Assembly: GCF_003334385.1 (NCBI RefSeq)
Contig: NZ_QOWN01000023.1
DNA from: Escherichia coli
GTDB lineage: Bacteria; Pseudomonadota; Gammaproteobacteria; Enterobacterales; Enterobacteriaceae
Strand: one strand, 5' to 3'
DNA: 64,000 bases
The notes below the pieces were generated by a model. The model saw only the letters and a program-made list of their open reading frames with translations, ran no database searches and was not told where the DNA came from. Below are positions 14,805 to 38,177 of the stretch, one piece after another; the first letter of the stretch is position 1, and each line of letters opens with the position of its first letter. The position numbers and the translations under genes were made by a program.

Positions 14805-15180
<376 letters not shown>

Positions 15181-15835: not shown

Positions 15836-15946
15836 TAAAAAGAATTCAGAATCAGGCCGGAGTGCTAAATACTCCGTAAACACGGTCGTACATCCAGCCG
15901 GTAGCCTGATTCCTTGCATTGAGTGATGTACGGAGTTTATAGAGCA

Positions 15947-22544: not shown

Positions 22545-23321
22545 ATGTCCGAAACAAAAAACGAACTTGAAGACCTGCTGGAAAAAGCAGCAACTGAACC
22601 GGCGCACCGCCCGGCCTTTTTCCGTACTCTACTGGAATCCACCGTCTGGGTGCCTGGTACGGCGGCGCAGGGCGAGGCTGTGGTTGAAGATAGCGCGCTT
22701 GATTTACAGCACTGGGAAAAAGAAGACGGCACCAGCGTCATTCCTTTTTTCACCTCGTTAGAAGCACTTCAACAGGCGGTTGAAGACGAACAGGCATTTG
22801 TCGTAATGCCCGTTCGCACGCTGTTTGAGATGACACTTGGCGAAACGCTCTTCCTTAATGCCAAACTGCCAACCGGTAAAGAATTTATGCCGCGTGAAAT
22901 CAGTTTGTTGATTGGTGAAGAGGGAAATCCGCTGAGCAGCCAGGAAATCCTGGAAGGCGGTGAATCGCTGATATTATCGGAAGTCGCAGAGCCGCCAGCA
23001 CAAATGATTGATTCACTCACCACCTTATTTAAAACCATTAAGCCGGTGAAGCGTGCTTTTATTTGTTCAATTAAAGAGAACGAAGAGGCACAGCCTAATT
23101 TACTTATTGGCATTGAAGCCGATGGTGATATCGAAGAAATTATTCAGGCGACGGGAAGTGTAGCGACCGATACATTACCTGGCGATGAACCAATCGATAT
23201 TTGTCAGGTGAAAAAAGGGGAAAAAGGAATTAGCCACTTTATTACCGAACATATTGCGCCATTCTATGAACGTCGCTGGGGTGGTTTTTTGCGTGACTTT
23301 AAACAGAATCGGATAATCTAA
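22545..23321 (+). CDS. sseB: Enhanced serine sensitivity protein SseB
   Basis: 258 aa from MSETKNELEDLL; gene order pepB-sseB. Confidence 0.88.
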   Translation: MSETKNELEDLLEKAATEPAHRPAFFRTLLESTVWVPGTAAQGEAVVEDSALDLQHWEKEDGTSVIPFFTSLEALQQAVEDEQAFVVMPVRTLFEMTLGETLFLNAKLPTGKEFMPREISLLIGEEGNPLSSQEILEGGESLILSEVAEPPAQMIDSLTTLFKTIKPVKRAFICSIKENEEAQPNLLIGIEADGDIEEIIQATGSVATDTLPGDEPIDICQVKKGEKGISHFITEHIAPFYERRWGGFLRDFKQNRII

Positions 23322-23625
23322 AATATGCCGCCCAAAGGGCGGCATTCGGGCTTACTTGCTGCTCTGAAGGTTGTTAACCACCAGTAAATTGTCGCCGGAG
23401 AGACTCCGGTTATTATTTACCTCGGTTAACAGCGCACCAGAAACAATAAGTACGATACAAAAGCACCGTATCTTCATTGTGCGGTCCATGCGAAGACCGC
23501 ATCACGACAGCACCACTGGCGATATTGCCGCGATAGCAAGCGCTGTGAAACACCTGCATTTACGGCCACGGAACATCCTTTCCTAAAGCCAGCGCCCGTT
23601 TGCGAGACGGCGGAAAGGGCCGCAG
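23318..23625 (-). ncRNA. ryfA: Candidate ~300 nt RNA (RyfA-like), minus strand, carrying small ORFs
   Basis: Minus-strand -10 TATTAT (plus coordinates 23629-23634); GC hairpin 23325-23345 followed on the minus strand by AUUUUAG; span fits the ~300 nt RyfA RNA of the sseA-sseB spacer from memory. Confidence 0.4.
23352..23477 (-). CDS. Candidate small hydrophobic protein (41 aa; 45 aa if started at 23489)
   Basis: MKIRCFCIVLIVSGALLTEVNNNRSLSGDNLLVVNNLQSSK: basic N-terminus plus 15-residue hydrophobic stretch; ends 7 nt before terminator hairpin; no obvious SD; same frame as upstream 24-codon ORF (23502-23576) across a TGA. Confidence 0.3.
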   Translation of the reverse strand: MKIRCFCIVLIVSGALLTEVNNNRSLSGDNLLVVNNLQSSK

Positions 23626-23806
23626 TGGATAATACACTAACAGAACAATAATAACTCTCTTTTGCTTGACAAAAAGAGAGTTACTGGCGAGTATTGTCTC
23701 CGCTGAGACGCGCTTGCATTACTACGGTAATACAACCTGCTGGAAAGGCCGCGAACCGGACCAGCAACAAAAAACCGCCTGATTTTGGCGGTTTTTTGTT
23801 TTTTAA
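23609..23806 (+). repeat. Copy 1 of ~196 bp direct repeat: A/T-stem hairpin containing TTGACA (23666-23671) and a factor-independent terminator (23769-23804); candidate small RNA (RyfB-like)
   Basis: Near-identical core AACTCTCTTTTGCTTGACAAAAAGAGAGTTACTGG and CTGCTGGAAAGGCCGCGAACC shared with copy 2; GC stem plus T-run. Confidence 0.6.
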
Positions 23807-23930
23807 AGGAAAATGAATTTACATGTTTAAGTAATATCTTTTACCGGTTAGAATTTTTAATTTTGAGCAGGATTTGTTTATATTTGTCTGAATTCGGACT
23901 AATAAGCCAGGTTATTTTATTACCGAACAC

Positions 23931-24126
23931 GGCGGAAAGGGCCGGTGTCGATAATACGCTAAATAAACAATAATTACTCTCTTTTGCTTGACAAAAAGAG
24001 AGTTACTGGTGAGTATTGTTTTGCTGTGAAGCACCTGCGTTGCTCATGTAACACAAGTCAACCTGCTGGAAAGGCCGCGAACCAGACTAGCAATAAAAAA
24101 CCGCCAAATTCGGCGGTTTTTTATTG
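23931..24126 (+). repeat. Copy 2 of the same ~196 bp unit (TTGACA 23988-23993; terminator 24095-24123); candidate sibling small RNA (RyfC-like)
   Basis: Offset 322 bp from copy 1; diverged central segment, conserved ends and terminator. Confidence 0.6.
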
Positions 24127-35673: not shown

Positions 35674-36792
35674 ATGCATAACCAGGCTCCAATTCAACGT
35701 AGAAAATCAACACGTATTTACGTTGGGAATGTGCCGATTGGCGATGGTGCTCCCATCGCCGTACAGTCCATGACCAATACGCGTACGACAGACGTCGAAG
35801 CAACGGTCAATCAAATCAAGGCGCTGGAACGCGTTGGCGCTGATATCGTCCGTGTATCCGTACCGACGATGGACGCGGCAGAAGCGTTCAAACTCATCAA
35901 ACAGCAGGTTAACGTGCCGCTGGTGGCTGACATCCACTTCGACTATCGCATTGCGCTGAAAGTAGCGGAATACGGCGTCGATTGTCTGCGTATTAACCCT
36001 GGCAATATCGGTAATGAAGAGCGTATTCGCATGGTGGTTGACTGTGCGCGCGATAAAAACATTCCGATCCGTATTGGCGTTAACGCCGGATCGCTGGAAA
36101 AAGATCTGCAAGAAAAGTATGGCGAACCGACGCCGCAGGCGTTGCTGGAATCTGCCATGCGTCATGTTGATCATCTCGATCGCCTGAACTTCGATCAGTT
36201 CAAAGTCAGCGTGAAAGCGTCTGACGTCTTCCTCGCTGTTGAGTCTTATCGTTTGCTGGCAAAACAGATCGATCAGCCGTTGCATCTGGGGATCACCGAA
36301 GCCGGTGGTGCGCGCAGCGGGGCAGTAAAATCCGCCATTGGTTTAGGTCTGCTGCTGTCTGAAGGCATCGGCGACACGCTGCGCGTATCGCTGGCGGCCG
36401 ATCCGGTCGAAGAGATCAAAGTCGGTTTCGATATTTTGAAATCGCTGCGTATCCGTTCGCGAGGGATCAACTTCATCGCCTGCCCGACCTGTTCGCGTCA
36501 GGAATTTGATGTTATCGGTACGGTTAACGCGCTGGAGCAACGCCTGGAAGATATCATCACTCCGATGGACGTTTCGATTATCGGCTGCGTGGTGAATGGC
36601 CCAGGTGAGGCGCTGGTTTCTACACTCGGCGTCACCGGCGGCAACAAGAAAAGCGGCCTCTATGAAGATGGCGTGCGCAAAGACCGTCTGGACAACAACG
36701 ATATGATCGACCAGCTGGAAGCACGCATTCGTGCGAAAGCCAGTCAGCTGGACGAAGCGCGTCGAATTGACGTTCAGCAGGTTGAAAAATAA
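35674..36792 (+). CDS. ispG: 4-hydroxy-3-methylbut-2-enyl diphosphate synthase (IspG/GcpE)
   Basis: Fe-S cysteines in [10 protein letters not shown] and GCVVNGPGE; 372 aa. Confidence 0.95.
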
Positions 36793-36890
36793 TAACGTGA
36801 TGGGAAGCGCCTCGCTTCCCGTGTATGATTGAACCCGCATGGCTCCCGAAACATTGAGGGAAGCGTTGAGGGTTCATTTTTATATTCAGA
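36793..36890 (+). ncRNA. sroE: Candidate 3'-UTR-derived small RNA in the ispG-hisS spacer (SroE-like)
   Basis: Stable hairpin GGGAAGCG-CCT-CGCTTCCC at 36802-36820 right after ispG stop; an sRNA is known at this position from memory; ends not determinable from sequence. Confidence 0.35.
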
Positions 36891-36902
36891 AAGAGAATAA
36901 AC

Positions 36903-38177
36903 GTGGCAAAAAACATTCAAGCCATTCGCGGCATGAACGATTACCTGCCTGGCGAAACGGCCATCTGGCAGCGCATTGAAGGCACACTGAAAAACGTGCT
37001 CGGCAGCTACGGTTACAGTGAAATCCGCTTGCCGATTGTAGAGCAGACCCCGCTATTCAAACGTGCGATTGGTGAAGTCACCGACGTGGTTGAAAAAGAG
37101 ATGTACACCTTTGAGGATCGCAATGGCGACAGCCTGACTCTGCGCCCTGAAGGGACGGCGGGCTGTGTACGCGCCGGCATCGAGCATGGTCTTCTGTACA
37201 ATCAGGAACAGCGTCTGTGGTATATCGGGCCGATGTTCCGTCACGAGCGTCCGCAGAAAGGGCGTTATCGTCAGTTCCATCAGTTGGGCTGCGAAGTTTT
37301 CGGTCTGCAAGGTCCGGATATCGACGCTGAACTGATTATGCTCACTGCCCGCTGGTGGCGCGCGCTGGGTATTTCCGAGCACGTAACTCTTGAGCTGAAC
37401 TCTATCGGTTCGCTGGAAGCACGCGCCAATTACCGCGATGCGCTGGTGGCATTCCTTGAGCAGCATAAAGAAAAGCTGGACGAAGACTGCAAACGCCGCA
37501 TGTACACTAACCCGCTGCGCGTGCTGGATTCAAAAAATCCGGAAGTGCAGGCGCTTCTCAACGACGCTCCGGCATTAGGTGACTATCTGGACGAGGAATC
37601 TCGTGAGCATTTTGCCGGTCTGTGCAAACTGCTGGAGAGCGCGGGGATCGCTTACACCGTAAACCAGCGTCTGGTGCGTGGTCTGGATTACTACAACCGT
37701 ACCGTTTTCGAGTGGGTGACTAACAGTCTCGGCTCCCAGGGCACCGTGTGTGCAGGCGGTCGTTATGACGGTCTTGTGGAACAACTGGGCGGTCGTGCAA
37801 CACCGGCTGTCGGTTTTGCGATGGGCCTCGAACGTCTTGTATTGTTAGTACAGGCCGTTAATCCGGAATTTAAAGCCGATCCTGTTGTCGATATATACCT
37901 GGTGGCTTCAGGTGCTGATACACAATCTGCGGCTATGGCATTAGCTGAGCGTCTGCGTGATGAATTACCGGGCGTGAAATTGATGACCAACCACGGCGGC
38001 GGCAACTTTAAGAAACAGTTTGCCCGTGCTGATAAATGGGGTGCCCGCGTTGCTGTGGTGCTGGGTGAGTCTGAAGTGGCTAACGGCACAGCAGTAGTGA
38101 AGGATTTGCGCTCTGGTGAGCAAACGGCAGTTGCGCAGGATAGCGTAGCCGCGCATTTGCGCACGTTACTGGGTTAA
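36903..38177 (+). CDS. hisS: Histidyl-tRNA synthetase
   Basis: GTG start; class II motifs ([14 protein letters not shown]); 424 aa. Confidence 0.95.

Follow-up and report, generated by a model that had tools for sequence, protein, structure and literature searches.

We conclude that the spacer between ispG and hisS in this stretch of E. coli DNA is, almost beyond doubt, the sroE locus. This is a correct re-identification of a catalogued small RNA; the RNA is already known, and its finding here is not a discovery. The best overall explanation of the feature, to which we assign a probability of roughly 60%, combines this identity with a model for the biogenesis of the RNA and for a role of its DNA in cis. 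At the centre of the model is the proposal, to which the sequence leads us to give about even odds, that the ispG mRNA leaves SroE as its stable 3' tail, and that the ispG terminator and promoter signals for hisS lie in the same DNA. More than 20 years after its discovery, SroE is without an established function or trans target, and it has repeatedly been called uncharacterised in the literature. The conserved parts of SroE may reflect signals at the DNA level (the terminator of ispG and the promoter of hisS) and not an RNA regulator. If this is true, SroE is a by-product of a transcription junction, which would explain why target searches and overexpression screens have come back nearly empty, and also why insertions in SroE are lethal, hisS being an essential gene.

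The identity of the feature was evaluated by covariance-model search (cmscan, Rfam). The sroE model (RF00371) matched with 116.6 bits against a gathering score of 51, the E-value being 1.8e-28 for the whole window (the complete 64-kb stretch of DNA that was analysed) and 8.7e-31 locally. The match spanned model positions 1-92 of 92, with both consensus helices included; no non-canonical pairs were flagged in the alignment, and the posterior probabilities were all '*'. The spacer region was also 100% identical, base for base, to that of E. coli K-12 MG1655, in which RefSeq places the ncRNA sroE (b4761) at 2640595-2640686, and this corresponds exactly to the SroE interval given in Table 1. The first-pass annotation had named SroE as a known sRNA at this position and had suggested a covariance-model search; the search was positive, and the full-length family match and b4761 on the same bases bear out this identification. 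At the sequence level we observed no difference between the feature and the SroE family (RF00371, b4761), and this is that RNA. Mihailovic et al. 2018 give these same 92 nt as SroE in their supplement (PMC6172242).

A 501-nt query (36600-37100), which took in the spacer together with the adjoining ends of both genes, was present in 5426 of 5426 complete E. coli genomes, and in 5355 of them the identity was at least 99%. A permissive Rfam scan of 36700-37000 (E <= 1) returned no family besides sroE in the spacer, and the minus strand of the spacer gave only a sub-threshold mirror match to sroE (16 bits) and non-conserved ORFs. SroE was reportedly found in the cDNA-cloning ('RNomics') screen of Vogel et al. 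in 2003. One account gives it as a molecule of 90 nt that came out of an early screen (PMC3632133), and by RNA-seq it was detected in all tested growth and nutrient conditions with no significant change (PMC12266141). In a scan of the whole window at gathering thresholds, sroE was one of seven Rfam matches. The others above the gathering score were ryfA (314.9 bits), IS128 (260.3 bits), the iscR stability element iscRS (138.1 bits) and three tandem copies of naRNA4 (72.2 bits each), the latter spaced 91 nt apart; their coordinates, listed jointly, are 23320-23623 (-), 23755-23963 (-), 15836-15945 (+) and 14866-15119 (+).

The intergenic region between ispG and hisS is exactly 36793-36902, or 110 nt, with the GTG of hisS at 36903. 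The ispG reading frame stops at TAA (36790-36792), and the next codon is again TAA (36793-36795). Such tandem in-frame stops (TAATAA) end ispG in E. coli and in three Citrobacter loci, and in most other relatives ispG ends with a single TAA and then CGTG. The three genes ispG, sroE and hisS are all co-oriented on the plus strand, and the layout is the same in MG1655. The features of the region are collected in Table 1.

Table 1. Features of the ispG-hisS region, with positions in the window.
Feature	Position	Strand	Basis and remarks
ispG (gcpE) coding sequence	35674..36792	+	ORF list; MG1655 annotation b2515
SroE small RNA, 92 nt (Rfam RF00371; MG1655 b4761)	36792..36883	+	Covariance model, MG1655 identity, annotation
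TGGGAA, candidate -35 of a hisS promoter, 3/6 matches, overlapping the left arm of hairpin 1	36801..36806	+	Relaxed weight-matrix scan
Hairpin 1, perfect 8 bp: GGGAAGCG-CCU-CGCUUCCC	36802..36820	+	Sequence, fold, alignment
Single-stranded linker GUGUAUGAU, invariant	36821..36829	+	Invariant columns in alignment A2; promoter scan
TATGAT, candidate -10, 5/6 matches, in the linker	36824..36829	+	Scan; predicted start near 36836-36837
Hairpin 2, outer stem UGAACCC/GGGUUCA around an interrupted inner helix	36830..36876	+	Fold, alignment
U-run UUUUUAU, directly 3' of hairpin 2	36877..36883	+	Sequence, annotation, alignment
AGAGAA, Shine-Dalgarno-like element of hisS, outside SroE	36892..36897	+	Invariant in alignment A2; recognisable in most of 80 loci
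hisS (histidine-tRNA ligase), GTG start	36903..38177	+	ORF list; annotation b2514

We observed that the 92 nt of SroE fold with an energy of -40.1 kcal/mol (z = -4.73), and that none of 200 shuffles folded as well. The fold consists of two domains, hairpin 1 and then a long interrupted stem-loop, hairpin 2. Hairpin 1 starts 10 nt past the TAA stop codon of ispG, and is made up of GGGAAGCG (36802-36809), the loop CCU (36810-36812) and CGCUUCCC (36813-36820). It has 6 G-C pairs and a dG of -12.4 kcal/mol, and in the minimum-free-energy fold of the E. coli sequence weaker pairs extend it to 36796-36827. Directly 3' of it lies GUGUAUGAUU, so that there is no U-run at this place. The perfect, GC-rich 8-bp hairpin that the first reading of this DNA had placed just after the ispG stop, with no U-tract behind it, was therefore confirmed from the sequence in both respects.

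The octamer GGGAAGCG is present twice in SroE, at 36802-36809 and at 36858-36865, and CGCUUCCC could pair with either copy. A riboswitch-like alternative fold, in which CGCUUCCC pairs with the second copy, was rejected: its energy was -22.9 kcal/mol as against -41.6 kcal/mol for the minimum-free-energy fold, and outside E. coli only one Citrobacter has retained the second copy.

A palindrome that arose by chance, or a REP-type repeat, could also account for such a hairpin, and the Rfam match would then be mere identity among close relatives. RepRanger does label sroE as containing 'REP' (PMC12306157), and the covariation support for the stems is weak. However, when perfect 8-bp stems (at least 5 G-C pairs, loop of 3-8) were counted, the 64-kb window had 21 such positions, as compared to 3.2 +/- 2.3 in dinucleotide-preserving shuffles. 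These hairpins are thus about 6 times commoner in the window than in the shuffles, and on these numbers the chance occurrence of one in a given 110-nt spacer is unlikely, and hairpin 1 sits exactly at the end of a gene. Furthermore, different genera share hairpin 1 and the linker unchanged but have a wholly diverged hairpin 2 interior next to them, which points to selection. The sequence also appears to be unlike the canonical REP consensus. We regard a chance or REP-type origin as highly improbable.

Hairpin 2 has a dG of about -22.5 kcal/mol, and from its sequence hairpin 2 with its U-run resembles an intrinsic terminator. SroE is annotated as ending at 36883, the last base of the U-run and 7 nt past the stem, and this is where intrinsic termination, or trimming up to the hairpin, would leave it. 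The first-pass annotation had described the DNA between its hairpin and hisS as ~80 nt of spacer; sequence is indeed present there ahead of hisS, but it is not featureless, as it holds this second stem-loop and then UUUUUAU. The hairpin that had been seen is the 5' hairpin of SroE, whereas the 3' end is set by the second, terminator-like hairpin, which had been overlooked.

In a simple terminator scan of the E. coli spacer, hairpin 2 failed on account of its long interrupted loop. Its homologue in E. cloacae, a plain 7-bp hairpin followed by UUUUUUG, passed the same scan. The Term-seq tables examined from Adams et al. 2021 list no 3' end between MG1655 2640500 and 2640799 (PMC7815308). This absence speaks against hairpin 2 being an efficient terminator under the conditions of that work, and termination there in vivo is either inefficient or below the threshold of that study. 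The same tables do list strong 3' ends inside hisS, at window positions 37044 and 37195 (MG1655 2640434 and 2640283), which are 141 and 292 nt past the start codon, and 3' ends inside ispG as well (PMC7815308).

We further compared the locus across relatives. The C-terminal 180 residues of IspG were used as a query against one-genome-per-species bacterial assemblies, which yielded 80 loci from Enterobacteriaceae, Erwiniaceae, Yersiniaceae, Pectobacteriaceae, Hafniaceae, Morganellaceae, Budviciaceae and Vibrio. In all 80 loci ispG was followed by hisS on the same strand, and hisS started with GTG in 77 of the 80; the spacers were 13-411 nt long. Those of just 13-26 nt were seen in Pantoea sp. 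1.19 (L026) and in Acerihabitans, two Vibrio and Zophobihabitans (L061, L063, L067, L079). Since these leave no room for SroE or for a promoter, hisS must be co-transcribed with ispG in these species.

When 19 representative loci were searched with the Rfam sroE model, only Enterobacteriaceae were recognised (E. cloacae with 58.2 bits and Siccibacter with 51.0 bits), and the loci of the other families in this set gave no match. Three more loci, with the labels Pseudocitrobacter, Enterobacter sp. R1 and Klebsiella sp. BIGb0407, scored below the threshold. Insertions of ~90-130 nt were seen in the spacers of five loci, L003 and L005 (both about 2056-2160), L038 (about 2110-2240), L057 and L069. 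These look like ERIC (enterobacterial repetitive intergenic consensus) elements. One of the ERIC-like insertions lies within the loop of hairpin 1 (Pseudocitrobacter) and one within hairpin 2 (Klebsiella sp. BIGb0407), and Rfam returned only weak V_AS5 and isrH matches on them.

The 23 SroE-bearing spacers, all from Enterobacteriaceae, were aligned (alignment A2). The elements that were invariant or nearly so were TGGGAAGC-N5-GCUUCC, the linker GUGUAUGAU, GAACCC, GGGUU, the U-run, and AGAGAA...AAC GUG at the start of hisS. Seven of the stem pairs of hairpin 1 were likewise invariant or nearly so; its loop was fixed in length and free in sequence, and there were no indels in this hairpin. At the position of hairpin 2, every one of the 23 had one stem-loop, mostly closed by (U)GAACCC/GGGUUC(A), the variants being GAGCCCA/UGGGUUC in the E. 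cloacae group and an inner ACCC/GGGU in one Enterobacter (L019). A run of 5-8 U followed it in 22 of the 23, the exception being Superficieibacter (L008) with UAUUU. The base of hairpin 2 was conserved, but its interior was hypervariable, wholly different in sequence and length, and ranged from a simple 7-bp hairpin to helices of ~20 bp of unrelated sequence; the fold energies of the homologues accordingly lay anywhere from -8.6 to -31 kcal/mol. Since the base and the U-run are kept while the interior varies freely, the element appears to be terminator-like, and not a leader that binds a ligand or a tRNA.

A like hairpin with a U-run is also present in Serratia, Rahnella, Pectobacterium, Brenneria, Edwardsiella, Hafnia and Pantoea, and the arms of hairpin 2 could not be set in one register across the families. 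We also estimated covariation in the two conserved stems of the alignment. In these, 95.9% of the cells were paired, only 2 pairs had double changes, and the covariation score was reached by 24 of 500 shuffles. This test is uninformative, since the conserved stems barely vary.

A standard consensus promoter scan found no promoter in 36300-37300, and a relaxed weight-matrix scan of the E. coli spacer region gave three candidates with similarly weak scores, against a background of ~2.7 hits of at least 8 bits per kb on one strand of this window. The top E. coli score belonged to a candidate lying over the ispG stop codon, with TTGACG (36767) as the -35 and AATAAT or TAATAA as the -10 at a spacing of 15 or 17 (9.2-9.5 bits; predicted start near 36800-36802). 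It was rejected as the conserved promoter, since in relatives that bear SroE its -35 is conserved neither in synonymous positions nor in the encoded residues: at this site the Ile codon shifts between ATT and ATC, and Asp is replaced by Ser, Asn or His. This holds even for Citrobacter and Enterobacter, which keep SroE. Another candidate, TTGAGG-21-TATATT, was rejected for its overlong spacer and for a -35 inside the variable region.

The TTGACG candidate bears on the proposal that SroE is a prematurely terminated hisS leader. The promoter would then lie at the end of ispG with a start near 36792-36802, and hairpin 2 with its U-run would be an attenuator, perhaps sensing tRNA-His or histidine. 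A T-box-like cis role was proposed by Barquist et al. 2013, SroE being always 5' of the essential hisS (PMC3632133). Salmonella does not tolerate transposon insertions in the SroE region, which was required in the TraDIS screens of two serovars (PMC3632133). The terminator-like hairpin is 20 nt upstream of the hisS start, and the TTGACG candidate predicts a start at the foot of hairpin 1, as this proposal would have it. Apart from the loss of that -35 in close relatives, however, the annotated 5' end of SroE (36792) is upstream of the predicted start. The region 36700-37000 gave no T-box or His-leader match at E <= 1, and 92 nt are too short for a T-box. The only upstream ORF (36839-36979, plus strand; 46 aa with several His codons, overlapping the start of hisS out of frame) was rejected as a leader peptide, since its ATG (36839) falls where hairpin 2 is hypervariable and the E. 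cloacae group lacks it. No pocket for a ligand or a tRNA is conserved inside hairpin 2, and a possible anti-terminator pairing is 19 kcal/mol worse than the minimum-free-energy fold. The existence of species with the 13-26-nt spacers also speaks against an attenuator, and we consider a hisS leader rather unlikely.

The candidate TGGGAA-17-TATGAT agrees with the consensus at 8 of 12 positions and scores 8.5 bits, which is below the threshold of the standard scan. Its hexamers, at a spacing of 17 or 18, were invariant in 23 of the 23 aligned Enterobacteriaceae. As inferred from these features, this looks like a weak sigma-70 promoter for hisS. Such a promoter would explain why hairpin 1 is frozen, because its left arm would double as the -35, its right arm would have to stay complementary to the left, and its length would set the spacer. 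The linker GUGUAUGAU contains the candidate -10, or may alternatively be the seed of an sRNA. Positions 36836 and 36837 lie inside the left arm of hairpin 2, and the outer stem is out of reach for a transcript that begins at either of them. The hisS promoter reporter of the E. coli promoter-fusion collection was active (PMC10665441).

When we examined the loci outside Enterobacteriaceae and Erwiniaceae, we observed a near-consensus sigma-70 promoter, TTGAnn-18-TATAAT, before hisS in 25 of them, with 13-14 bits in the weight-matrix scan and 10/12 in the standard scan. These loci are from Yersiniaceae, Pectobacteriaceae, Hafniaceae, Morganellaceae and Budviciaceae (L046-L081; e.g. L050 2118-2147 and L049 2102-2131). 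The distance from the end of the -10 to the GTG of hisS was 32-42 nt in 22 of the 25, and 97-99 nt in three Yersinia spacers that have extra sequence. In Serratia, Rahnella, Pectobacterium, Brenneria and Edwardsiella, the promoter is inside the equivalent of hairpin 2, the order being GAACCCG, the -35 and the -10, CGGGUUCA, and then the U-run. With this arrangement, ispG transcripts in these five genera would include the whole hairpin, and those initiated at the hisS promoter would have their 5' end where the right arm ends. E. coli has no internal promoter in hairpin 2, and GUUGAG is found where the -10 would be. Among Enterobacterales, a conserved hairpin of the terminator-like kind thus appears repeatedly to have a hisS promoter inside it or abutting it.

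These observations would fit a more general description of the spacer as a 'terminator with an escape promoter', which we put forward tentatively and rate as somewhat short of an even chance. The hairpin and the U-run would stop ispG transcripts, and hisS transcripts, which would begin within the arm or just after it, would escape. In Serratia, Rahnella, Pectobacterium, Brenneria and Edwardsiella, the promoter would be inside the hairpin with the right arm CGGGTTCA as its discriminator. In Enterobacteriaceae it would have moved to abut the left arm, which would have freed the interior to drift, and SroE would be a by-product and no regulator.

For E. coli itself, our preferred reading, the ispG 3' tail together with the hisS promoter signals, would work as follows. 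Part of the ispG transcripts would terminate intrinsically at hairpin 2 and its U-run, or would be trimmed from the 3' side up to that hairpin. An endonuclease would cut around the stop codon, where the RNA is A/U-rich, and would so free the tail (both the cut and the nuclease we infer from position only), and the two hairpins would protect its two ends, so that the tail would accumulate as SroE. The linker TATGAT, with TGGGAA of the left arm of hairpin 1 located 17 nt upstream, would provide a weak sigma-70 promoter for hisS, and hisS transcripts would start inside the left arm of hairpin 2 and would be unable to form the terminator. SroE would then be mainly a by-product of the junction between the ispG terminator and the hisS promoter. 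The earlier idea that SroE is a processed 3'-UTR RNA is plausible.

SroE could also be a trans-acting, Hfq-associated sRNA, with the linker GUGUAUGAUUGAA as its seed and hairpin 2 with the U-tail as an Hfq-binding terminator module. The architecture, a 5' hairpin, a conserved single strand and a terminator-like hairpin with a U-tail, would fit such an RNA. SroE was among the Hfq-bound sRNAs in nitrogen-starved E. coli (PMC12539622), and its level was down 1.75-fold in an hfq mutant of Klebsiella pneumoniae (PMC3136514). Only one weak in vitro target has come forward, ligB; nine of the ten predicted targets showed no in vitro binding, and it is the tenth that bound weakly (PMC6172242). Overexpression of SroE gave no biofilm, motility or fimbriae phenotype (PMC4606813), SroE is without the (ARN)x Hfq motif (PMC5575007), and its expression is constitutive and not stress-induced (PMC12266141). 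The U-tail is short, with five U and then AU. As for the invariance of the linker, a -10 promoter element explains it equally well. Together, these findings make a trans-acting role for SroE quite improbable in our estimate.

Leader attenuators of aminoacyl-tRNA synthetase genes are known in several forms, such as the T-box in Firmicutes, and the pheST leader-peptide attenuator and the thrS operator in E. coli. SroE resembles these in that it is structured, contains a terminator-like hairpin and directly precedes a synthetase gene. Unlike them, it has no match to a T-box or leader family and no conserved leader ORF, and the interior of its hairpin is hypervariable. The other class to which it can be compared is that of the 3'-UTR-derived sRNAs, such as CpxQ (from cpxP) and SroC (from gltI), which are released by RNase E from the tails of mRNAs. 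Like these, SroE begins at, or right beside, the stop codon of the gene that precedes it, is co-oriented with its parent mRNA, and has its 3' end at a terminator-like hairpin with a U-run. RNAs of the CpxQ and SroC type have defined seeds, targets and a clear Hfq dependence, whereas none of these is established for SroE. What sets SroE apart from them is that its 'terminator' lies directly upstream of an essential, co-oriented gene and overlaps the likely promoter of that gene.
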